Below, one piece after another: positions 30,678 through 58,175 of a DNA stretch of 64,000 nt; position 1 is the first letter of the stretch; each line of letters starts with the position of its first letter. The stretch is from Thermoplasmatales archaeon. Lineage in GTDB: Archaea; Thermoplasmatota; Thermoplasmata; Thermoplasmatales; Thermoplasmataceae. The position numbers were made by a program, and so were the translations under genes. Under the pieces are notes generated by a model. That model was not told the DNA's origin. It made no database searches and was given only the letters and a program-made list of their open reading frames with translations. The DNA is taken from positions 192,001 through 256,000 of the forward strand of contig DAIDBH010000018.1 of NCBI GenBank assembly GCA_027310185.1, given 5' to 3'.

Positions 30678-31361
30678 ATGCACCTTCAAGTGACTGTTAA
30701 CTGTAATATATCCATAGTGATCCCAACAATGAACGAAGGTAGAACAATTGGCAAGGTCATTGACGATCTCCAGTATCTCAGGCCATTGGAGATTATCGTC
30801 GTGGACACAAATTCCACTGATAAAACTAGGGAAATTGCCTCAGAAAAGGGGGCAAAAGTCATAGAAGAACCAAGAAAAGGATACGGTAGGGCATATAAAA
30901 CTGGGATCGAGGAGGCAAAAGGGGAAATTATTGTCTGTCTGGATGGCGATGGCACCTATCCTGCTGAAGCGGTAGGTCCCTTAATAGAATTACTTTTCAT
31001 TGACAGGGTCGATTTCATCTCGTGTGACAGGATGACGTTGAGAACGACTTATTCATACACTACATTACATCTAATAGGAAACAAGATTCTAAACAAAACC
31101 CTTGCAATTCTCTATGGCTTCAGGTTATATGATTCCCAGAGTGGCATGTGGATATTCAGGAAGGACTTATACGCCAGGATGAAGAATCTAAGTGATGGAA
31201 TGTCCTATTCCCAGGATATAAAGATCGAGGCTATGAGGAATGGAAGATTGATCGAAGTGCCAATTGTTTATGGGGTTAGGATAACGAAGCCAAAGCTTAA
31301 CACATGGGAAGATGGCTTTCATAATCTCTTTGAACTTTTCGTGAAATACGTGAATAAGTAA
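30678..31361 (+). CDS. Glycosyltransferase family 2 (dolichol-phosphate hexosyltransferase-like)
   Basis: VIPTMNE, VVD.NSTD.T, GYG.AYKTG, DGDGTY and DSQSG motifs. Start refined to 30678. Confidence 0.88.
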   Translation: MHLQVTVNCNISIVIPTMNEGRTIGKVIDDLQYLRPLEIIVVDTNSTDKTREIASEKGAKVIEEPRKGYGRAYKTGIEEAKGEIIVCLDGDGTYPAEAVGPLIELLFIDRVDFISCDRMTLRTTYSYTTLHLIGNKILNKTLAILYGFRLYDSQSGMWIFRKDLYARMKNLSDGMSYSQDIKIEAMRNGRLIEVPIVYGVRITKPKLNTWEDGFHNLFELFVKYVNK

Positions 31362-31549
31362 TAATTGAAATGATTTTTCCCGTGAATAAGGAAAATCTGA
31401 ACAGGTATCCATGGATTTCATCACTCAGGTTATTTTCATAAGAATTACTTTTCTGCTCAAACTGCATGATTTCCTTCTAAAAGTGCAGTTATGAGAACAT
31501 ATTGAGATTTTTCCAAACTTTAAAATATAAAGTTTGTCTATATCTATTC

Positions 31550-32299
31550 ATGGAAAATAACCAGACCAAAGTTGGTGTCATATGCAATGAAGATGTACAC
31601 TTCACCAACCCTATCGTTATCGGTGGGTTCATTGGGCAGACTACACTGGGTGTAACAACAACAAGCTACATCATAGAGCAGTTTGGTTTACACGAAGTCG
31701 CAAAATTGAAATCACATCAAATAGCACCCGTTACGGTTTTCGTTGGAGGAAAGATGAGAAGTCCTTTCAGAATTTATTCCAATGATAAGGGTACTTTAAT
31801 GATCATTCAATGTGAGGTGCCTGTAGACATTGAGGGTTTGTATGAAATTACAGAAACACTGATGGACTGGATCAAGCCATTCAACCCGAAGGAGTTTGTG
31901 ATCATAGATGGAGTTCCCGTAGAGGACCTTCCAGAGGAAAGGGAGGCATATCTCGTAGCTGGTCTGGAGAGAATTGAAAGTTTAAAGAGTACTGGAATAG
32001 CCATTGCTGAAGCTGCTCTGATCGGTGGAATGGGTGGTGCCATTCTGAATGAAAGTATCCTTACAGGGCAGAATGCAATAGCACTTCTTACAAATGTATC
32101 AGTCGCAATACCCGATCACGATGCTGTGCTATCAGTGATTAAAGCACTGAATGCGATTTATAAACTAGGAATAAAAACAGCGGTGCTTGAGGAGAGCGTG
32201 AAGAAGATACACGAAGAAATATCAAAAGTAGCAAGTGAATATAAGGCAGCAACTGCTGAACAGGATTCAGTCTCTGGTCCAGATTCAATATACAGGTGA
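31550..32299 (+). CDS. PAC2-family proteasome assembly chaperone
   Basis: IGGF.G...G, P.RIY, ID.G, G..GA.L and PD..A motifs of the PAC2 family. Confidence 0.82.
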   Translation: MENNQTKVGVICNEDVHFTNPIVIGGFIGQTTLGVTTTSYIIEQFGLHEVAKLKSHQIAPVTVFVGGKMRSPFRIYSNDKGTLMIIQCEVPVDIEGLYEITETLMDWIKPFNPKEFVIIDGVPVEDLPEEREAYLVAGLERIESLKSTGIAIAEAALIGGMGGAILNESILTGQNAIALLTNVSVAIPDHDAVLSVIKALNAIYKLGIKTAVLEESVKKIHEEISKVASEYKAATAEQDSVSGPDSIYR

Positions 32300-32309
32300 A
32301 AATGCAGAA

Positions 32310-33323
32310 ATGATAAAAGTGGCTATTAATGGATATGGAACAATCGGCAGAAGAGTGGCTGACGCAGTCAGAGCCCAGAAAGATATGTCTGTGGCCGGGG
32401 TAGTGAAAAGAAAACCAGATTATGTAGCCAGGGAAGCTGCAAGAAATTATCGTATATTCTCGAGTGATAAAGAAACACTGAAGGCTTTCTCGCAATCAAA
32501 TATTGAAGCTGAAGGAACAATGGAGGAACTTCTGGATGACGTGGATATTGTAGTGGATGCAACCCCAGAAGGACAGGGAGAAAAAAATATACAGATATAC
32601 AAGACGGCAGGGAAAAAGGCAATATTCCAGGGGGGAGAATCGGCTGCACTTGTAGAAGCCAGTTTTAATGCCTATGGTAATTTTGTGGATTCATGGGGAA
32701 AAGATTATGTACGCGTTGTTTCATGCAACACAACTGCCATGGCCAGGACAGTTTCAGCATGCATGCAGAAGTTTGGTGTACGAAAAGTTGAGGCAACTAT
32801 AGTCAGAAGGGCAACTGATCCAAATGACAGCAAGAAGGGGCCAATAAACGCAATAGAGCCATCTCTAGGGTTTCCATCACACCATGGGCCAGATCTGAAG
32901 ACCGTATTAAAAATAGGGGAAGCCAATACGGTGGCAATAAAGGTACCAACGACCCTCATGCATGTACACGTGGTGAATCTAACACTGGAAAAGACCATCA
33001 CACAGGATGATACACTGGATCTTTTCAGGGAATATGGAAGAATAATAACTGTATCAGGAAAGGAAGGGCTCACATCAACTGCCCAGCTGATGGACCTGGG
33101 AAAGGAAATGGGCAGGAAGAGAGGCGACCTCTTCGAGATACCTGTCTGGAAGGAATCTATATATGCAAATAACGATAATTTAAGATATATACAGGCAGTA
33201 CATCAGGAGAGTGATGTGGTTCCTGAAAACATTGATGCCATTAGATCAATGCTTCAGGAAAGGGACAGGGAATCATCCATAGAAGAAACAGATAAGGCAA
33301 TGGAAATCAGGGGGAAAAATTAA
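32310..33323 (+). CDS. gap: Glyceraldehyde-3-phosphate dehydrogenase (archaeal type II)
   Basis: [31 protein letters not shown] and [12 protein letters not shown] motifs. Confidence 0.96.
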
Positions 33324-34318
33324 TGGAAAAAAATGAAAAGATAAAAAAAGAAGAGGAAGCAAAGGACGAAAGCAAGAAATTGACAATTGAAGATATTCCA
33401 GGTGTAGGTGAAGCAACAGCTGAGAAGCTCAGGGAAAACGGTCTTGATGATATAATGGCCATTGCGACCGCCTCTCCAAAGGATGTTTCTGAGCTTACCG
33501 GGATAGGTGAAGGCTCAGTGGCAAAGATCATTTCAGCGGCGAGAAAAATTGCTGATATAGGAAACTTTGAAACTGGAGAAGAGATATTCCAAAAAAGAAA
33601 GGATGTTTTAAGACTGACAACAGGGAGCAACAATCTTGATACACTACTTGGAGGTGGCCTTGAAACCCAGTCAATTACAGAATTCTTTGGAGAATTTGGT
33701 TCCGGGAAAACCCAGATTATGCATCAGCTTGCTGTGAACTGCACTATGCCGGAAGAAAAAGGCGGATTCAACTCTGATGTTCTGATCATAGACACTGAAA
33801 ATACATTCAGGCCTGAAAGAATCATTCAGATGTCCAAGTACAGGGAACTGGATTCTGATGAAGTATTGAGGAGAATACACGTGGCAAGAGCATATAATTC
33901 ACACCACCAGATACTTCTAGGTGAAAAAGCAAGTGAGATGGCGAAGGAATACAAGGCTAAACTTCTGATTGTTGACTCACTCACATCGCATTTTCGTTCA
34001 GAATATATGGGAAGAGGATCACTTTCAGAAAGACAGCAACTGCTAAACAGGCATATGCATGATCTGCTGAGATTTGGGACACTCCAGAATGCAGTCATAG
34101 CAGTTACCAACCAGGTTGCCGCAAGACCCGATGTATTCTTCGGTGATCCAACGGCACCTATTGGAGGAAATATAGTAGGACACACGGCAACATTCAGGAT
34201 ATATCTGAGAAAGGGAAAGGCCGGGAAGAGGATTGCAAGACTGATAGACTCTCCATACTTACCGGAAGGAGAAGCCGTGATTCAGGTATCAGAAGATGGA
34301 ATAATAGATGGAACATAG
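33323..34318 (+). CDS. radA: DNA repair and recombination protein RadA
   Basis: N-terminal Hh[28 protein letters not shown] and RIARLIDSP; no intein. Confidence 0.97.
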
Positions 34319-34850
34319 GAGGGAAATGAACATGTGGGATTTGATAAACAATGCCTTTGGCAAGTACCCTTCTCAGATGAAGATAATAAAATATTTGATG
34401 AACTACGGGTTTTCTGTAAATGAGAAATTTGATGGTGAATTCTCACTATACAGTGGTAAAGTAGAAGTGAGACCAAGCTCTCTAGCAGAAGCAATTGACG
34501 TGGATAAGCGAGTTGTAATACAGGTCATAAAAAAAATCAGGGAGGACCCGAAGCTTTTTGAATTCTTCAAGAAACTGAAGCCAATAGCAGATATGAGCAG
34601 TGCAAGCTCCAAGCTTCTGGATCTGGGAATCATTGAAATAAAAGCAGAAGACCCCTCAAAACCTGGAATAATAAGTTCTGTTATCAATTTAATTTCCAGC
34701 AGAGGGATTGGAATAAGGCAGGTAATGGTAAGTGATCCTATAATCAGTGATGAACCAGTTGGAAGAATAGTAACGGAAACGCCCATAACAACAGATCTCC
34801 TAAGTGAAATAAAGAAGATTAAGGGTATAGATTCTGTTGTAATGCTATAA
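34308..34850 (+). CDS. Archaeal regulator of amino-acid metabolism with ACT domain
   Basis: W..I...F..YPSQ, HTH ([12 protein letters not shown]) and C-terminal ACT (PGIIS.V...I...GI.IRQ). True start may be a few codons downstream. Confidence 0.8.
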
Positions 34851-34863
34851 ATGAGGTAAAAGT

Positions 34864-35235
34864 ATGGCATTAATTGGAAAAAAAGGACAAAAAGAACAGG
34901 ATTTGGATGATACAATAGAATATCTGGACCTTCAGGACTACCGGTTTGACACATCTCAGGAAAATGGAAGCCTGAAGTCCATAAAAGTGGTCGATGTAGA
35001 AAGGGCTGATCATGTGTCAAGAGCAGCTAAACTGGCTTACCAAAAAAATATTGTAATCATAGACATCAGCAACGCCAATAAGGACCCAAACAATACAAAC
35101 CAGATTGATGTATCCATTAGGAAGCTTGTAAAGGATATCAACGGTGATTTTGGAAAGCTTGGTGAATTCTATTATATCATAACACCATCTGACGTTTTCC
35201 TTGATAAGAAAAAGGTCAGGGACGATTATATCTAG
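34864..35235 (+). CDS. sepF: Cell division protein SepF-like
   Basis: EYLDL N-terminus, IKVVDV, NIVIIDI, DINGD and YIITP.DV...K pattern of archaeal SepF. Confidence 0.7.
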   Translation: MALIGKKGQKEQDLDDTIEYLDLQDYRFDTSQENGSLKSIKVVDVERADHVSRAAKLAYQKNIVIIDISNANKDPNNTNQIDVSIRKLVKDINGDFGKLGEFYYIITPSDVFLDKKKVRDDYI

Positions 35236-35327
35236 ATTTATTGCTAAACTTATTTATTATAAGAAATAATTCTTAATTCGTGAAATTGGAGTTCAGTTTT
35301 ATTATTAGGCGTTTCCTTTATTAAATT

Positions 35328-35670
35328 GGTTCTCTTCAGTTTATTGTGGGTAACTTCAATCCACCTGTCACAAGATATCTGATCGTATCCCTGTATTCAT
35401 TAGTTCTGAAGCCATAGGAACGCTTGAATGCAGTTTTGATCTGTTGTTTAATCCCTCTACGACAGCTGAATTGATGCCTGTTCTTATGGCTTCCATGATG
35501 CCATCAATATGTCTCTTCATTGTTTTTCCAGGCTTTACAACAATATCCTTCATTCTTGATCGTACTGCCCATGATATTCATTTTTTCACATACTCTTCAG
35601 CAAATGTTACGTTCGGGATCGATAATCTCTGCAACGCAATCTTGAAGTGAAGAGATCCATTTCCTTTAAA
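35328..35670 (-). mobile_element. ISL3-family insertion sequence, 3' remnant with right terminal IR
   Basis: Frameshifted translation ...FKIALQR...W.VRSRMK...KTMKRHIDGIMEAIRTGINSAVVEGLNN/IKTAFKRSYGFRT.EY...I.YLVTGGL.LPT matches the ISL3 C-terminus. It ends at a GGTTCTCTTCA terminus at 35328 (plus strand). Confidence 0.8.
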
Positions 35671-36148
35671 TCACATAATAGACCATTGAACTTTTCTGAA
35701 TTTTATTCCTTTTATTAGCTATTTTACTGATTATGGTAGTGTATGTGTTTGAATGAATATTACATACATTGCAAGGCTATATGAATACTGTACCAGACTG
35801 GGAAATGAAATACAAACCATGCTGTGTCATTACTCAGTGTGAAAAGCAATTACTATGCTTACTTGCACCGGAACACAATTCAAGAAGTATATACATATTG
35901 AGGACAATATCCAGAATCTGTTTTCTGCAACAAGAACAATGCCAACATTCGTAGGTGTATAACTAGGATTAATAAGGAATGTTTCTGAAAATGGCAAAAG
36001 GCCTGATGTAAGATCTGAAAACTGTTCCTGTAATATTATATATAAAAGCTTGGGTTAAGAATTAAATTTTCATTCATGGAAAAAACAAATTTGGATATAT
36101 TAGTATTTAAGGTTAAATAAAAAATAATTTTGATTTCCATATGTTGAT

Positions 36149-36409
36149 TCATTGATTACTCTCTAACCCTATGAAAACTGCTAGTTTCTTGAGCAGAAAA
36201 ATGATAATCTGCATTATAAGTGCAACAACTGAAAATACAAATGCAATGTATGACATTGCCCCTTCCCACTGAATTGCTGACCCAAATGCTGTGAGATCGG
36301 TAGGCGTAATTGATGCTAATATGTCCAGATAAATTAGATAAAAAACCACTATTGCAATCACATTAATTAAAAGACCAACATACACACCATTTAATTTAAT
36401 TCTCGCCAT
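36149..36409 (-). CDS. Small hypothetical membrane protein (2 TM)
   Basis: Intact 86-aa ORF with two hydrophobic helices, sitting between IS remnants. Confidence 0.6.
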   Translation of the reverse strand: MARIKLNGVYVGLLINVIAIVVFYLIYLDILASITPTDLTAFGSAIQWEGAMSYIAFVFSVVALIMQIIIFLLKKLAVFIGLESNQ

Positions 36410-37388
36410 GAACGCTACTTAATCAAAATGTATATCTTATATTTTTCTATGATCACTCCCTAGATATCATGAAGTCAAACAGTAATACTCAAATTTATTG
36501 TACAGGAAATAAAGAAGAGCACAAGTAAAATAGTAACAATACAAACACATAGAAACTTCTATGTTGGTACAATTAATTTATCGAACATAAGGCGGATGAT
36601 GAAATCAGATTTATCCATGATTCTTGAGGAGAGATAAAATGAAAAAGCTCGAAAGGTGTATTGAAAGCATGTAATACATTTTTAGTCTCAATAGATACTG
36701 GCAAGAAGGAAAACAAAGCAACTTGCATAGCACCCGAATGGTTGGAGAAGGAAGGATTCAAGTTTTCCATGAATATGGGAGATACGCTGAAGTTGCAAGG
36801 CAGATGCCGCCTGGGGCAAAAATAGCATTCGAAGTATCCGTATCTGCATATGCAGTATTCAAACCTCTGAGAGATTTGGCGTAGTCAGAAACAACAGTGG
36901 CTCATCTAAAGCAACTTTCATGGCCAACAAAATCAAAGAAGAAAGACAGGGTTGATTCCGTTAAACTCGTGAAAATGGATTTCGTGGACATGATACGAGA
37001 ATCCCATCTTCTTGAGGAGGATAAGAGGATATTTTGTCATTTCCCATTCGTAGGGGTAGGCTTGTAAAGTCTATCTAATTTTTTATGATACACCTATAGA
37101 TACCAGTGATAATTTTTCTGAGAAGAGGAGAAAAGTAATAAATGAGATTATGTTAAACAACCAGAAATGTCTTGTCCTTAAAACAATGCTAGACAGACTT
37201 GAATTCTTTGAGAAGCATAGCATTTCACCAGAAAGAGAAATATGAGGGGAAGCCAGAGAAACCGAAGATGTTAAGCTCCTCATGTGAATGCCCTGAATAG
37301 ATTACTATCTTGCACCTCTCCTTTCATCCTACGTTGGAAATGTGAAGAGATTTGAAACCAGTGTTAAACTTGCTTCATTCTTCGGCAA

Positions 37389-37982
37389 TTAACAAGCGGT
37401 AATCCTGCAACAGCAAATAAGAAACTTGACCAAATCATGGAAAGTACCGATCTTACGATCAACACGGGAAAGAGCCGTATAGTCAAGCACAAGAAAGTTT
37501 TTGTTTTCTTAGGCTTCAAGTTTGTGAGACAGTATTCCTCATGAAAAAGTGGGAGGTGACCAGATGGGTCCCCTGCCAGTTAATCCGAACTGAAGATACG
37601 CAACAACATGCACAACTTGAGGAGAAAACAGTGCTCAATCACTAACAACGCCATAGGAGGGAATAGGAAACACTCATCTCCATACCGATGGGATGGAGTA
37701 ACTAATTCGTCCACAGTCCCGTATCCAAATCGTTTTTAGATGTATGGAACTATGCACAAAGTAGATTGTTGTATATGTACCGCTACTATCACAACATACA
37801 ACGCAAATCAAAAACCAAAGACATTCCAAACCATATACTTTCCATCATTAACGCTATACCATCTACATTTCTAGGAAAATACCTAATCTCATATCATGAA
37901 AGCAGTAGGTAGCCGGTTGTGGAAATCAATCAGTCCGGTTAAAAGAGCAAGTTCCTGGTAGTTTCAGAGCTTTCCTCCCAAT
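37389..37982 (+). mobile_element. Group II intron, 3' half (decayed RT/maturase plus domains V and VI)
   Basis: Translation LTSG...LDQIMESTDLTINTGKSRIV...FVFLGFKF resembles RT6-7 and LISIPMGWSN*F....SKSFLDVWNYAQSRL..MYR resembles maturase domain X. Domain V AGCCGGTTGTGGAAATCAATCAGTCCGGTT is at 37911-37940, followed by a DVI-like hairpin ending in AT at ~37982. Confidence 0.78.
37911..37940 (+). ncRNA. Group II intron catalytic domain V (degenerate)
   Basis: AGC triad; AGCCGG pairs with CCGGTT; inner TTG/CAA stem around a GAAA-containing loop with a 3' bulge; lies directly after the maturase-like reading frame. Confidence 0.72.
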
Positions 37983-38640
37983 TTTAAGATGATAAAGCTC
38001 ACTAGGATGATATTCACTATGCTTATGGAACTAATGGAGTGTAAGTATGAAAGTTACGCATTAATTCAGGACAAGATATCAAAGCTGGAGGAGACATGAA
38101 ATGCCCTGATAAACGAGATATCTCACATGGATTTTACACACAAGATTGACTCATGAACCCTTTTTAGTGAGGGCCAGTATCTGTCTTCTCTGTATTAGCA
38201 GATCGTATAATTGAATATTATGCGTGTTTGCGAAAAGGCAGAGGGAGGAACTCCCGTTCCAGGTTCCCAAGAATATTACAACAAGTGAAAGAGATTAAAA
38301 ATATAACAAAAGAGGACGTAGCTGAGAATTTACATGAGTGACGGCAATCATTAAAGTAATTACCAAAAAATTATGAAATGTCAATTTTTCAAATACACGA
38401 ATGTATCCACTAATGAATATATGTTCTGGAGGTCGCACAGCACTCACGTAAAAGTGGAATTATATCATTCTTTAACTACGCGAAAGTTCGAAGAGCAAAA
38501 AACATATTATCTCAACGAAAAATGAGCGACACAAGGACTCTCAAAACATTTTCTAGGAAATTGAATTTAATAATCAACATATATAAATGTTCATAGTCGA
38601 GGGAAATGGTTTATATAACATGATAAGCATACGCACGATA

Positions 38641-41220
38641 ATGAATAAAAAGAAGTTTGTCATAGCTATGGTCTTCTCTTTGCTCATGCTGGGTTCGGCA
38701 TTTGCCATATCCGCATTAGCTTCAGGAGGATCTCAGATTGTTTTAACTGGAGGCCAAAGTGGGCCAGTTCTTAATGGTGAACCGAGCACATCTACAAGTT
38801 CAACGCCTTGGAGTATGCCGACAACCACCATGCAGGAACCAAGCTACACGAACGGAACGTTTAAAATGGGTATCGACTGTAATGTGAATTCGTTAAATCC
38901 ATTCCAAGAGACAACTTATTGTGATGCCTATGTCGTGGAAGAACTCTATGACGGGTTATATAACACACTGCCAAATGGACATGTTGTTCCATGGCTTGCA
39001 ACCAATTATTCTGTACAGCACGTAACCTCAAACAACCAGACGTACGATTTGCTGACTAACACAACAGTGAACTACTCATACGTATATACGATACATCTAA
39101 GGCCTTATGTTCAGTGGACTGACTGGACTCCAGCAAATGCCTCACAGACATACACATTCTCAAACGTGCTGCACTATTACTATAACGGAAACATGACAAC
39201 GCACGTATACAAATCCTACAAGAACACAACAATGAAGAAATATTACCTGCAGTCAGGTGATGTAGTCCAGTCCTTTAGAATGCAGCAATCATGCGGAGAT
39301 TGGCCAAATGTTGTGAGTGTTGTGCCGGACGGGAATCTAAGCGTTAAAGTTTTTGTTTCTTCGCAAACCCTGTTGCTATTTACGAGCGACTTCGAGAACA
39401 ATGTACTACCTTACCACATATGGATAAAACATGACTTTACATCTGTAAATGGGTTGTATAACTACACACCTGGACTAACATCAGGTAATGGATGGTATGA
39501 CTGGAACATGGGATGGAACACAGCTACTGGAAGATCACCGGGATCAGTTGGTACTGGGCCATTTATGGTACAGAATAGTTATGGAATGCCACAAGGTGCA
39601 ATAATACCAAGCCATGTTGAAACAATGTACGTAAATCCACACTACTTTGTGCAATATGCAAACAAAACAAGTGGACTCAGACAGTACACTCCAAAGATAT
39701 ATGAGATAGATGAACCGTTCTACAGTTCAGAATCCTCGATGATAGCAGCATATCAGAAAGGTCAGATAGACACGACTTCATCAGCACCGACTCCAAACTT
39801 CCTGCCCCAGATTCAATCAACGCCAGGCTCTTACATATATCACAAGACCTCCAGTGCATATGGTTACCTAAGGTTAAACACAAGAGTAGCACCTATGAAT
39901 GTAACTGCATTTAGACAGGCGCTGAACTATGCCACGCCAACAGCATACATAGCCAGTGCAATTAGCGATGGATATGCAATTCTGTCGTCCGACCCAGTAA
40001 ACCCTGGGAACACATTGTATTATAACTCATCGTCTCCCCTCTACACCCTTAACATGGCAAAAGCGAAAAGCCTCATAAACTCAATACCTGGGATGGACAA
40101 CGTCTCTGGAACATTGGAATACTACGGAAAGCCAGTTTCACTGACCATACAAACTACCGTTGGTTCAGTCGCACCAGACAACATAGAGGGAATTGATGCT
40201 ACGGAGAAATACTGGAATCAACTTGGAATATCCGTAACCCTGAAGGAAGAAGCGTTTACAACACTCATATCAAACATTGACGGAACAATATCATCTAACA
40301 ACAACCTGTACCAGATAGGCGATCTCGGAATCAGTACTCCTATAGGCGATCCAGCTCTTGATTGCCGTGTTTCCCTCAACCCAAAATATGGTATACCGAC
40401 CGGCAGCTATGTAGGGCCATTTTCTAGCATGACAGTTAATGGAAAGTTACTCAATGGGACGCAGGTACAGGATCTGTTCAATAACATAACAGCAAAAATA
40501 GTCAGTTCAGACTCACTTCCAAATGCAGAAAAGGAAGTTAAATATCTTCAGACTCTAATGATTCAACAGGCAACAATGATCAACCTTGGATATTTTGTCG
40601 ACCTCATACCAGAACAAACAAACGGATTCACTAACTACTCTCACACGAACGCGGATGCATCATATCTTTACTGGTACTGGCAGTTCTTTTCATTAGAGCA
40701 CACCAAATCAGCTGCGGTCAAGTATCCGTACTACCTCACAGTTAAAGCAACTGTAAGCTCTGGTACAACTCAGTACGACAATGAAACATCTACAATTTCC
40801 TTTACCGTATTGAATGGAACGACGCCTGTATCTGGAGCAACAGTCTTAGTTGGAATATCAGCTACATATGGTGGTATATTCAACATAACTTCAACAAATC
40901 TTGTCACCAATTCCAACGGAGTGGCAAATTTCGAATATGAAGTGAAGGATTTGAACAATTTGCTTGAAACTACTAACAGCACTGGGGCTGTAGTCCACAT
41001 TGGATCGGAGGATGTGAATATCACTGGTATCGCAGAAATTCCTCACTCAACTACAGTTGGATCAGGAAACGCGACAGTTGAACTGACACTAATGCCAAAC
41101 AAACCAGTGTCAACATCAACTCCCACATTGGATTACATAGCAGTTGGAGTAGTTGTGGCTGTTGTTGTCATAGCTGGAGTAGCCTTTGCAATAATGAGAA
41201 AATCAAAGGTAAAATCCTAA
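38641..41220 (+). CDS. dppA: ABC transporter substrate-binding protein (peptide/DppA-OppA family), C-terminally anchored
   Basis: Signal peptide, SLNPF, LYDGL....PWLA, VGTGPF, FRQALNYA, S/T-rich linker, C-terminal TM plus RKSK. Confidence 0.88.
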   Translation: MNKKKFVIAMVFSLLMLGSAFAISALASGGSQIVLTGGQSGPVLNGEPSTSTSSTPWSMPTTTMQEPSYTNGTFKMGIDCNVNSLNPFQETTYCDAYVVEELYDGLYNTLPNGHVVPWLATNYSVQHVTSNNQTYDLLTNTTVNYSYVYTIHLRPYVQWTDWTPANASQTYTFSNVLHYYYNGNMTTHVYKSYKNTTMKKYYLQSGDVVQSFRMQQSCGDWPNVVSVVPDGNLSVKVFVSSQTLLLFTSDFENNVLPYHIWIKHDFTSVNGLYNYTPGLTSGNGWYDWNMGWNTATGRSPGSVGTGPFMVQNSYGMPQGAIIPSHVETMYVNPHYFVQYANKTSGLRQYTPKIYEIDEPFYSSESSMIAAYQKGQIDTTSSAPTPNFLPQIQSTPGSYIYHKTSSAYGYLRLNTRVAPMNVTAFRQALNYATPTAYIASAISDGYAILSSDPVNPGNTLYYNSSSPLYTLNMAKAKSLINSIPGMDNVSGTLEYYGKPVSLTIQTTVGSVAPDNIEGIDATEKYWNQLGISVTLKEEAFTTLISNIDGTISSNNNLYQIGDLGISTPIGDPALDCRVSLNPKYGIPTGSYVGPFSSMTVNGKLLNGTQVQDLFNNITAKIVSSDSLPNAEKEVKYLQTLMIQQATMINLGYFVDLIPEQTNGFTNYSHTNADASYLYWYWQFFSLEHTKSAAVKYPYYLTVKATVSSGTTQYDNETSTISFTVLNGTTPVSGATVLVGISATYGGIFNITSTNLVTNSNGVANFEYEVKDLNNLLETTNSTGAVVHIGSEDVNITGIAEIPHSTTVGSGNATVELTLMPNKPVSTSTPTLDYIAVGVVVAVVVIAGVAFAIMRKSKVKS

Positions 41221-41229
41221 TTTTTTTTT
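41221..41229 (+). terminator. Oligo-T archaeal terminator/attenuator after the substrate-binding gene
   Basis: T9 run directly after the TAA stop at 41220. Confidence 0.45.
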
Positions 41230-41280
41230 AACAAAGTTTTTAAAACATTTTTTTATACAATTTCAATATGAGGGAAATAA

Positions 41281-42273
41281 ATGAATATTTATCTATTAAC
41301 TAGGAAGATTATTCAAGCATTCGCATTGGTAGTCATAATGACTCTGATAATCTTTGTTGTATTCAGGCTGATGCCAGGCAACCCCGGATTATTATTATTG
41401 AAATCGGCCAACAAGACAGGAACACCGCTGAGTGCGAAGCAAAAGGAGGCCATACTGAGCACATTAGGTTTGCAGGATGGAAAATTCTCACTCGTAGACT
41501 TTGAGACATATCTCTACCAGATGTTCACATTCCATTGGGGAAGGGATTTCAACTCTCCCGGTCAGTATGTGTATAATGAAATTGCCAATGCACTTCCGTA
41601 CACTTTAGTACTCATAGTATCGTCCGCTCTGCTCTCCTTCGCAATAGGAATTCCTCTTGGAATAGTTGTTTCAAAGTGGAGGGGAGGAAAGAAGGAAGGG
41701 GTAATACTAACGACCAGTCTAATTCTAAATTCCATACCTTATTTCATCCTAGGCGTCATTCTATTCCTCTATCTGGCCGTATATTCAAGTGTATTGCCCT
41801 TGAAAGCCAGCGTTCCAATTACGTACATAACACAACCCTCATTAAGCACTTTTCCTACATTATTGTACCATATAGCATTGCCTTTCAGCACCTTGCTAAT
41901 AATAGAATCTATGGGGCACATGATCACCATGAGGGCAGCGATGGTTTCAACTCTAGGTGAAGACCACATAACAACTGCAAGGGCAAAGGGAGTGCCGGAG
42001 AAGTCAATACTTAGAAAACACGCGGCAAGGATCGCTGTTATTCCAGTAACAACCAGATTGGCATTGCAACTCTCATTTTTAATAAGTGGTTCGCTGATTG
42101 TTGCAATCATATTTAACTGGCCTGGAATGGGACCTCTTCTATATCATTCAGTGTTAAATGAGGACTATCCTCTTAGCGAAGCTTCAACATTTATAATATC
42201 TCTTCTGACAATAGTTGCATATTCATTGATTGACTACATACATGCGTGGTTAGACCCAAGGATTAAAGTATGA
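41281..42273 (+). CDS. dppB: Peptide ABC transporter permease DppB
   Basis: RLMPGNP, LPYTL.L, EAA loop TARAKG, FNWPGMG and LDPRI motifs. Confidence 0.92.
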   Translation: MNIYLLTRKIIQAFALVVIMTLIIFVVFRLMPGNPGLLLLKSANKTGTPLSAKQKEAILSTLGLQDGKFSLVDFETYLYQMFTFHWGRDFNSPGQYVYNEIANALPYTLVLIVSSALLSFAIGIPLGIVVSKWRGGKKEGVILTTSLILNSIPYFILGVILFLYLAVYSSVLPLKASVPITYITQPSLSTFPTLLYHIALPFSTLLIIESMGHMITMRAAMVSTLGEDHITTARAKGVPEKSILRKHAARIAVIPVTTRLALQLSFLISGSLIVAIIFNWPGMGPLLYHSVLNEDYPLSEASTFIISLLTIVAYSLIDYIHAWLDPRIKV

Positions 42274-42296
42274 TAATTCAGTTGTGGTGAAATAAC

Positions 42297-44552
42297 ATGG
42301 AAAACAGCAATGGGAAAAAATCGAGGAAAGTGCCTTCAGTATACTGGAGGAGACTCTACAGACAATTTAAAGTATTCTATCACAGCTCTTATGGAAAGGT
42401 AGGGTTCTTCATACTGCTTGCATTTGCAGTAATTACTCTTGTTACTCCTTTCGTTGTGGCTAATCCTAATTATACCTACATAGCTCCTGAGGTTGATACC
42501 CACGTAGCCTGTGAGATAACACAGACAAACCTCAGAAATATAGCTGGTAACAACTCAGTTTCGAAGATATACTCTCCAATGTCAAGTGTATTACAAAACG
42601 AGGGGACATCTGCGATTTATGTAGGAACGAGCAACGGTAAGATATATGCATATGGTCTCGGTGCAAATTCAGCTTTAAAGCTTGGGCAGTTAGAGGAGGT
42701 TTATAATTCACACATAAGTAAAAATGAAGTAATGTACCAGCCTACAATGTTTTCACTCATTAATTGCGCTGAGTTGACAGTCGGTCAGGCTCAGTTCGAG
42801 AGGTTTGTGGCCTTACCAATACAAAACGGAACAAGTGGATATGTAAACATTGGAACAATTTCCTACGTGTTCGATGGTTATACAAGCCCAACGTACAGTT
42901 CTGTAACATCTTTTGATTACAATGGAACACTTCAAGGGAACATAACTTCAAACTCAGCTCCATTTACAGGCACCGTATCAACAAGTATACCATCATTCTA
43001 TTACGAGAATTTAAGTCAATCACCAAGTGGACAGATTTACCTTGTCTCGCACAACCTGACAGGAAATTATCTGTATAGGTATCAGATTTCCCCGTCAGAA
43101 TTAATAAGTGTTGAGAAATTGAACATGAAGAGTGTGAAGGATATATCCTATTACGGCTCATCATTTACCCCGTCCTTGTTCGATTCCAATGCACTGATTT
43201 TGGTTTGGAACAACACATCTGTTAATGCCTATTCAGCAAACAAAGGAAATCTTGTCTGGTCAAAGTATATCGGTTCCACCTTTAATTCTAGGGTAGGTCC
43301 AGTAATACCAAAATTTTATCAGACGAGTTACTCAACAAACAATTCAGCATACTACCTGAGTGGGGGAAAAGTGGAAAGGATCAACCTGGACACAGGATTC
43401 AATCAAACAGTTGTAAGCTTGAAAACCACACTAATCGGCTTATCTGTAACTCCTGGGCACTCTGGTCTTCCAAGTGATATTATTGCAACATCAAGATCTA
43501 ATTCCACTGTTCTGACATTCAACGGAACAGGTGCAGTCAGAATAAAGTCAGCAGCATTTCCTATTGATACAGGCTCATTCACAGCAACAGCAACCTACGA
43601 TAGCGTAGCAAATTCACTTATCCTGGTTTCAAACAAAGGCTCAATACTCTCATTCAGCTTGACATCAGGCTCCAGATTTCCATATTCGTGGACTGCAGAT
43701 CTTTCCCCAATACCTAAGAACACATCAAATGTACTCTTATTCAAAGATTCAACAACGGGAGTAGATGCAATTGCAGTTACAGGGAGCAACAATTACATCT
43801 ACGTGTACAGTGCAACTGCGAAAGAGGTAACTCCCACAGGACCCATGATTAAAACACCTTCAGGTACAAGTTTTTTGCTTGGTACAACCCAATATGGAAA
43901 TGATGTATGGGCAAGGTTCATGGAAAGCTTTGGGAACGACTGGATCTTTGGAATTTCAATAGGTTTTTTCACCATAATAATCTCTCTGGCAGTTGCGATG
44001 TATGTTGGTTATAAGGGAGGCTTTGGAGGAGAGGCTGTTGAGACATTGTCCCTTGCCCTGTTCCTTGTACCTAGTCTGGCTCTTCTGATTGCACTATCGT
44101 CTGTCATTAACGGTGCCGATTTCATAACATTGATACTTATAGTAAGTTTAACTGGATGGCCTTTCGCCGCCTTTACCCTGATAGGAGTTGTTAGAGGAGT
44201 GTCGGCGCGTTCATTTGTAGAAGCCTCAAAATTGTTTGGTTCCAAAAGTGGTTCTATCATGAGGCGTCACATAATGCCAAATATAGGACCGCTGCTGCTT
44301 TACCTTCTTGCACTTTCCATTGGAGGCGGAATAGGTGCAGTATCTGGTCTTGAGTTCCTTGGCCTTGCTCCATTAACAACCGCAACCTGGGGAGGAATGC
44401 TCAACGCTGCTTACACAGATTACTTCGTAGTTGTAACACAGCCTCAATGGATTTTGCCACCTGCTATAGCCCTAACCATGTTCATATTCTCACTGATATT
44501 TGTATCAAGAGGAATGGACGAAGTTGTAAACCCGAGACTCAGGAGGAGGTAA
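42297..44552 (+). CDS. dppC: Peptide ABC transporter permease DppC with large extracellular insertion
   Basis: OppC-type N-terminal helix, ~470-aa soluble insert, then LLGTTQYGNDVW.R, FVEASKLFG, RHIMPN, WGGML and NPRLR. Confidence 0.85.
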   Translation: MENSNGKKSRKVPSVYWRRLYRQFKVFYHSSYGKVGFFILLAFAVITLVTPFVVANPNYTYIAPEVDTHVACEITQTNLRNIAGNNSVSKIYSPMSSVLQNEGTSAIYVGTSNGKIYAYGLGANSALKLGQLEEVYNSHISKNEVMYQPTMFSLINCAELTVGQAQFERFVALPIQNGTSGYVNIGTISYVFDGYTSPTYSSVTSFDYNGTLQGNITSNSAPFTGTVSTSIPSFYYENLSQSPSGQIYLVSHNLTGNYLYRYQISPSELISVEKLNMKSVKDISYYGSSFTPSLFDSNALILVWNNTSVNAYSANKGNLVWSKYIGSTFNSRVGPVIPKFYQTSYSTNNSAYYLSGGKVERINLDTGFNQTVVSLKTTLIGLSVTPGHSGLPSDIIATSRSNSTVLTFNGTGAVRIKSAAFPIDTGSFTATATYDSVANSLILVSNKGSILSFSLTSGSRFPYSWTADLSPIPKNTSNVLLFKDSTTGVDAIAVTGSNNYIYVYSATAKEVTPTGPMIKTPSGTSFLLGTTQYGNDVWARFMESFGNDWIFGISIGFFTIIISLAVAMYVGYKGGFGGEAVETLSLALFLVPSLALLIALSSVINGADFITLILIVSLTGWPFAAFTLIGVVRGVSARSFVEASKLFGSKSGSIMRRHIMPNIGPLLLYLLALSIGGGIGAVSGLEFLGLAPLTTATWGGMLNAAYTDYFVVVTQPQWILPPAIALTMFIFSLIFVSRGMDEVVNPRLRRR

Positions 44553-58090: not shown

Positions 58091-58175
58091 GCGGAGGTTG
58101 TCGAGCTAGGTTAAAGGCGATGGATTTAGGGTCCATTCCCGTAGGGGTTCGCCGGTTCGAATCCGGCCCTCCGCA
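58091..58175 (+). tRNA. tRNA-Leu (anticodon TAG)
   Basis: GCGGAGG/CCTCCGC acceptor stem, ATGGA-TTTAGGG-TCCAT anticodon arm, long variable arm CCC-GTA-GGG, GGTTCGAATCC T-arm; no intron, CCA not encoded. Confidence 0.96.

Follow-up and report, generated by a model that had tools for sequence, protein, structure and literature searches.

We identified the remnant of a group II intron in the genome of a Thermoplasmatales archaeon, within a 64,000-nucleotide stretch of one 308-kb contig (hereafter the window). The initial annotation had read this piece of DNA as a group II intron remnant, and that reading is upheld in its core by the NCBIfam profile TIGR04416 (group II intron reverse transcriptase/maturase), by tblastn and blastn matches to introns of related genomes, and by a covariance model built from those relatives. 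The remnant is, with high probability, the inert 3′ end of an intron of an endonuclease-less lineage, placed in sense orientation inside a decayed IS110 gene, and insertion of a full intron followed by deletion is its most likely history. Our case is built on TIGR04416 and the relatives; RF00029, PF08388 and PF00078 were all empty on the window.

The remnant lies in a region without a long open frame, between an ORF ending at 35235 and an 877-aa ORF starting at 38587. Both peptides quoted in the initial annotation are present, in two different + strand frames, and the positions given for them are off by no more than a few bases. The first frame, from 37389, reads LTSGNPATANKKLDQIMESTDLTINTGKSRIVKHKKVFVFLGFKF..., and the second, from 37667 to 37909, reads ...LISIPMGWSN*FVHSPVSKSFLDVWNYAQSRL....

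The reverse transcriptase/maturase remnant

The coding part of the remnant, defined by TIGR04416, tblastn and blastn, spans 37389–37909 on the + strand and covers RT6/7 and the thumb/X region. It represents the last ~170 residues of a reverse transcriptase (RT)/maturase, equal to residues ~264–431 of a 437-aa relative at locus L010. Three read-through frames were scanned with TIGR04416 and one matched, the frame from 37368, over profile positions 228–306 of 353 (E 1e-6, 28.1 bits). Across the whole 1.88-Mb genome, the sole match to this profile was at window positions 37410–37643 (E 1.6e-6). With only one third of the protein remaining, the score falls far short of the 300-bit equivalog cut-off.

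By tblastn, residues 55–140 of the L016 RT ORF align to 37389–37643 (47% identity over 86 aa, E 2e-19) and residues 87–217 align to 37484–37879 in the other frame (33% over 132 aa, E 9e-18), while the 437-aa RT of L010 aligns to the window from residue 264 to residue 431. The nearest DNA relative, L026, showed 68.7% identity over 530 columns at 37388–37910 (blastn, E 4e-47), and the blastn matches for the RT part comprised L026, L016, L023, L039, L040 and L010. The intron-encoded protein is thus homologous to group II RT/maturases over RT6-7 and thumb/X. The three-frame HMMER search proposed in the initial annotation found nothing on the window: at E<=10, neither PF00078 (RVT_1) nor PF08388 (GIIM) matched the three read-through frames or any of ten stop-free pieces, and a genome-wide search with both at E<=1 was equally empty. 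All six of the relatives' RT ORFs that were scanned pass the gathering thresholds of both Pfam families, whereas the window remnant does not.

The RT homology starts at residue ~264 of 437, one to four codons past the YADD of the relatives. Alignment to these relatives therefore bears out the earlier suggestion that the fragment begins at about the residues after YADD. The catalytic YADD and RT0-5 (fingers/palm) are absent, as are ribozyme domains I–IV, in agreement with the proposed loss of the 5′ ribozyme and RT0-5, and IS110 sequence adjoins the remnant upstream. The first frame is interrupted by stops at 37542, 37557 and 37581 and the second by stops at 37664 and 37703, with a borderline case at 37643, and the change of frame falls between about 37620 and 37666. 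In all, the remnant has at least five in-frame stops (five or six), and its frame has shifted at least once. The ORFs of the relatives end where the remnant has its terminal stop (37910–37912); the frame ends at 37910, one base ahead of domain V, and there is no endonuclease domain, as had been noted.

Domains V and VI of the ribozyme

We aligned window positions 37901–37995 with the domain V and domain VI segments of 11 relatives (alignment A1) and found that they correspond column by column. The hairpin at 37911–37940 sits exactly at the domain V of the relatives, as marked by their RF00029 matches. On the basis of this alignment and the relatives-built covariance model, the domain V relic occupies 37911–37941 and the domain VI relic with the intron 3′ end occupies 37945–37980, both on the + strand; homology places the 3′ end itself at 37979–37982. 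The covariance model, which was built from 12 relatives with the window left out, returned 37904–37982 as its top match when both strands of the entire window were searched (22.1 bits; E roughly 0.001), compared to 10.9 bits for the runner-up.

The domain V hairpin with its AGC triad and the domain VI-like stem described in the initial annotation are thus right by homology, and both are degraded. A complete domain V is a 34-nt hairpin with an AGC triad, a two-base bulge and a closing tetraloop. In the relic, the AGC triad and six lower-helix pairs are preserved and the closing G-C pair has been lost, while one base is deleted and others are substituted in the upper helix and bulge region; the covariance model alignment marks non-standard pairs in this domain. 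The fold stability of the domain V relic was no better than that of shuffled sequence (z -1.14). In domain VI, three stem pairs are broken, and the branch point, a bulged A in all 11 relatives of A1, is a C at 37974.

The RF00029 cmsearch that the initial annotation had put forward was empty on the window at every scale. There was no match in the window at the gathering score, none at E<=10 on 35300–38600 or on 37860–38040 (181 nt), and none genome-wide at E<=1. Six of the 11 relatives in A1 (L026, L010, L013, L014, L023 and L040) score 40.9–46.8 bits with this model, whereas the window copy is below threshold. The Rfam families for domains I–IV gave no match in the window (at the gathering score, and at E<=10 on 3.3 kb and on 181 nt) or in the genome at E<=1. 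With no YADD region, no domains I–IV, a broken frame and the branch-point A lost, the remnant is non-functional, with no conceivable activity. The sole Rfam match in the window at the gathering score was an 85-nt tRNA with a long variable arm at 58091–58175 on the + strand (RF00005, 47.5 bits).

The host IS110 gene and the history of the insertion

Both flanks of the intron piece belong to one decayed IS110 element, which lies on the same strand, so that the intron piece is in sense orientation. As a reference we used an intact relative of 371 aa (between stops; L027:1755-2867:-) that bears PF01548 (N-terminal DEDD) and PF02371 (Transposase_20). By tblastn, its residues 15–51, 56–140 and 170–271 align to 36661–37386 (46–60% identity, joint E 1.4e-55), which delimits the 5′ part of the transposase pseudogene (residues 15–271; + strand) with its internal stops and frame changes. 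Residues 336–370 align to 37989–38093 (63% over 35 aa, E 2.3e-7), and the 3′ part, with the stop, runs from 37989 to 38096 on the + strand (tblastn and blastn). From 37989 onward, blastn matches L036, L027, L031 and L030. DNA homology to the IS copies of relatives starts at 36628 and extends to about 38340. The direct PF02371 signal in the window was weak (E 0.005–0.06), and intact IS110 transposases of the same genome match the relic at 33% identity (E 1e-8). We assign the host gene to the IS110 family by way of the L027 relative and its two domains.

In the IS copies of three other genomes, ~180–190 nt separate the sequences that correspond to the two flanks, compared to the 591-nt intron piece in the window. 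The intron piece therefore replaces about 65 transposase codons. None of 15 other RT-bearing loci carries this IS transposase alongside, and no compared locus matches both parts. The ends of the IS are left approximate because the 235-nt empty-site intergenic DNA of a same-genus genome has no similarity to the window flanks beyond the gene edges.

Two side observations concern IS110 sequences. In the leader of the relic, at 36592–36644 (+), there were sub-threshold matches resembling C/D-box sRNAs (sR41, 15.9 bits; sR2, 16.2 bits); with E values of 1.4–2.2 and scores far under the gathering scores, they are probably due to chance. The genome itself (G000) also holds at least three open IS110 transposase frames of a different subfamily, of 390, 390 and 418 aa between stops (C1:64-1233, C18:64-1233 and C2:10811-12064), which are ~33% identical to the relic; two of them lie at contig starts.

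To place the junctions, we aligned five IS copies and three copies of the intron to the window. On the 5′ side, the junction zone spans 37387–37398 (+), where IS110 homology ends at 37386–37397 and intron homology begins at 37388–37395. Microhomology at this junction looked suggestive by eye, yet it is within chance against shuffled sequence: the best of 15 IS/intron pairs was reached by 70 of 500 shuffles, and none of the 15 pairs fell below 70. The likeness at the 5′ junction therefore gives no support to a microhomology-driven deletion. On the 3′ side, homology to the intron stops at 37979–37982 and homology to the IS begins again at 37989, and between them the eight bases at 37981–37988 (+) fit neither intron nor IS110, so that a precise retrohoming junction is not demonstrable.

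Two same-genus genomes are syntenic with the window over 31000–35234, 36160–36450 and 38579–42542, at 80–86% identity. Opposite 2128 nt of the window, these genomes have 235 nt and the IS-plus-intron block is wholly missing; opposite another 925 nt (35235–36159), they have 125 nt. The site may represent either a lineage-specific dump of mobile DNA or a block that the two relatives have lost. Inside the 925-nt stretch we also observed the C-terminal relic of an ISL3-family transposase at 35368–35553 on the − strand (PF01610, E 3.3e-5).

Group II introns often insert into other mobile DNA, and their usual size is 2–3 kb. We propose that a full endonuclease-less intron first entered the IS110 transposase gene by retrohoming, in sense orientation. 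One later deletion would then have taken the 5′ end of the intron (domains I–IV and RT0-5), which we put at 1.5–2 kb from the usual size, and with it ~195 nt of the IS exon upstream, and the whole block would have drifted neutrally afterwards. This order of events is inferred, and no intermediate, that is, this IS with a full-length intron, was found among the compared loci.

Alternatively, the intron may have been truncated at birth and never full-length at this site. In such a scenario, target-primed reverse transcription from the 3′ end was aborted after ~590 nt and the cDNA was joined upstream with the loss of ~195 nt of IS110. Retention of the 3′ end only is the polarity expected of an aborted cDNA, target sequence was lost at the 5′ junction only, and several other remnants in the same family are also 3′ pieces. 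However, abortive reverse transcription would leave an exact 3′ junction, where we found eight unassigned bases, and the 5′ joint shows no microhomology beyond chance. One copy does not separate the two routes because a divergence of ~30% blurs both junctions. We regard truncation at birth as the lesser possibility and deletion after full insertion as clearly favoured over it, the main reason being that the 3′ junction, too, is inexact.

We also weighed two further readings. The assembly comprises 19 contigs and misassembly is typical at mobile elements, so the joint between IS110 and intron might be a chimera assembled from repeats in a draft genome. The stretch is however unique in the genome (a DNA search with 36500–38100 found only itself), it lies 37 kb into the window on a 308-kb contig, and its two flanks form a single decayed IS copy in one orientation, which makes misassembly very improbable. 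Still harder to sustain is the idea that the frames are a diverged C-terminus of the IS110 transposase, or a chance pattern. In favour of it, neither RVT_1 nor GIIM of Pfam matches, the start of the piece coincides exactly with the end of IS110 homology, and an "LT..SG"-like motif follows at this point in IS110 proteins of the same genome. Against this, five IS110-family ORFs of the genome (three full-length and two short fragments) reached a best E of 2.7 in 37389–37988 among the tblastn matches listed, and the orthologous intact IS protein aligns over residues 15–271 and 336–370 only. Intron sequences do match this stretch, at E 2e-19 for RT proteins and at E 4e-47 for DNA. Since IS homology halts at 37386–37397 and resumes at 37989, with intron RT matches between, a transposase C-terminus is ruled out.

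Relatives of the intron and its place among known systems

The initial annotation had considered it possible that this genome or related ones hold intact copies. This holds for related genomes and not for this one. TIGR04416 matched in 20 of 103 same-family genomes at E<=1e-3, and 10 of these exceeded the 300-bit cut-off, one of them from the same genus. In a class-wide sample of 401 genomes, 50 matched at E<=1e-3 and 21 were above the cut-off. In the genome under study (1.88 Mb, 99.5% complete), the Pfam, Rfam and TIGR04416 searches gave no other group II intron signal.

The relatives are real group II introns, with TIGR04416 scores of 310–404 bits, RVT_1 and GIIM domains, and RF00029 just after the ORF; eight loci carry RF02005 or RF02003 (domains I–IV), which in several lie ahead of the ORF. 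Five of five full-length relative RTs scanned (418–478 aa) carry RVT_1 and GIIM and no nuclease domain, and three of the five have a weak RdRP_1 match that overlaps the RT domain. The best PDB matches of one relative's RT were group II intron RTs (E 1.8e-59), about equally those of classes IIB and IIC. A search of a collection of genome contigs with a relative's RT returned three loci, the record of the query itself and two bacterial RTs of 36% and 29% identity, and is silent on a donor. Taken together, the sequences of these relatives indicate that the intron is a member of an endonuclease-less lineage still alive elsewhere in the family.

The remnant is most directly compared to the full introns at L010, L016 and L026 in the same family, which have endonuclease-less RTs of 390–440 aa. 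The C-terminus of its RT shows 33–47% protein identity and up to 69% DNA identity to these, and it shares with them the order and spacing of ORF stop, domain V and domain VI and the same domain V lower helix with AGC. In contrast to them, the window copy has nothing upstream of the residue after YADD and carries stops, a frameshift, a damaged domain V and no branch A.

Truncation close to YADD was also observed at other loci of the family. Eight other same-family RT remnants start at TIGR04416 positions 221–262, equal to residues 261–280 of the 437-aa RT. These start points lie just after YADD, within about 20 codons, and the loci include L047, L048, L021, L022, L023 and L049. At L047 (G052:C42), an RF00029 match of 54.1 bits at 2611–2686 on the minus strand ends exactly at the start of the remnant, and the locus is one intron nested in the RT gene of another at the post-YADD point. 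It is conceivable, though we consider it improbable, that the break after YADD is non-random, that introns of the family home at a post-YADD site in each other's RT genes, that recombination between nested copies repeatedly sheds 3′ halves, and that the window piece is such a half now located in an IS110 gene. At L023 (G038:C8, 1181–2048) and L049 (G015:C106, 6–469) we found an internally ORF-deleted intron, in which RF02005 (domains I–IV) lies directly upstream of an RT piece that begins at residue ~280; in L023, RF00029 comes next. The two genomes, from different genera, do not differ at any of the 90 nt around the deletion junction, which could reflect either a spreading non-autonomous intron or shared or cross-binned DNA.

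Outside the family, RmInt1 of Sinorhizobium meliloti is likewise endonuclease-less and housed in an insertion-sequence gene (ISRm2011-2), and its copies are described as decaying by fragmentation and surviving as fossils (PMC4496777, PMC4181065). Its natural target is given as lying within an IS transposase element (PMC4496777). RmInt1 has a bacterial host and an IS630-family IS, whereas the window remnant has an archaeal host and an IS110. Fragmentation of RmInt1, as described, loses the intron 3′ terminus (PMC4496777), which the window remnant keeps. The introns of Methanosarcina acetivorans are archaeal and are placed in non-housekeeping mobile contexts (Dai and Zimmerly 2003, as summarised in PMC4424553). 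They belong to a different archaeal phylum, and the window copy is in an IS110 gene and not in another intron. The nested homing of Methanosarcina introns into introns' ORFs (PMC4424553) is paralleled at the family locus L047. The same review assigns archaeal introns to lineages CL, D and E, describes those of Methanosarcina as homing into one another, and states that most bacterial intron copies are truncated or inactivated, often amid other mobile DNA (PMC4424553).

Group II introns were reported in 15% of Thermoplasmatota genomes in one survey (PMC8919778), and a transcribed group II intron is listed in Ferroplasma Type II (10.1101/538918). The main text of a preprint on archaeal group II introns (10.1101/2024.12.10.627823) makes no mention of Thermoplasm*. 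The remnant is thus an ordinary fossil of a known element type in a lineage with such elements already reported. Because Thermoplasmatota group II introns are, by that survey, already in print (PMC8919778), the finding touches no open question and its value is mainly one of annotation. The window between 36.6 and 38.3 kb is dead mobile DNA, an IS110 with an intron relic, and not unexplained intergenic sequence. In conclusion, the remnant shows that the species formerly carried a retroelement and then lost it, while intact copies persist in relatives of its family, and this fits the picture of invasion, decay and extinction drawn for bacterial group II introns.
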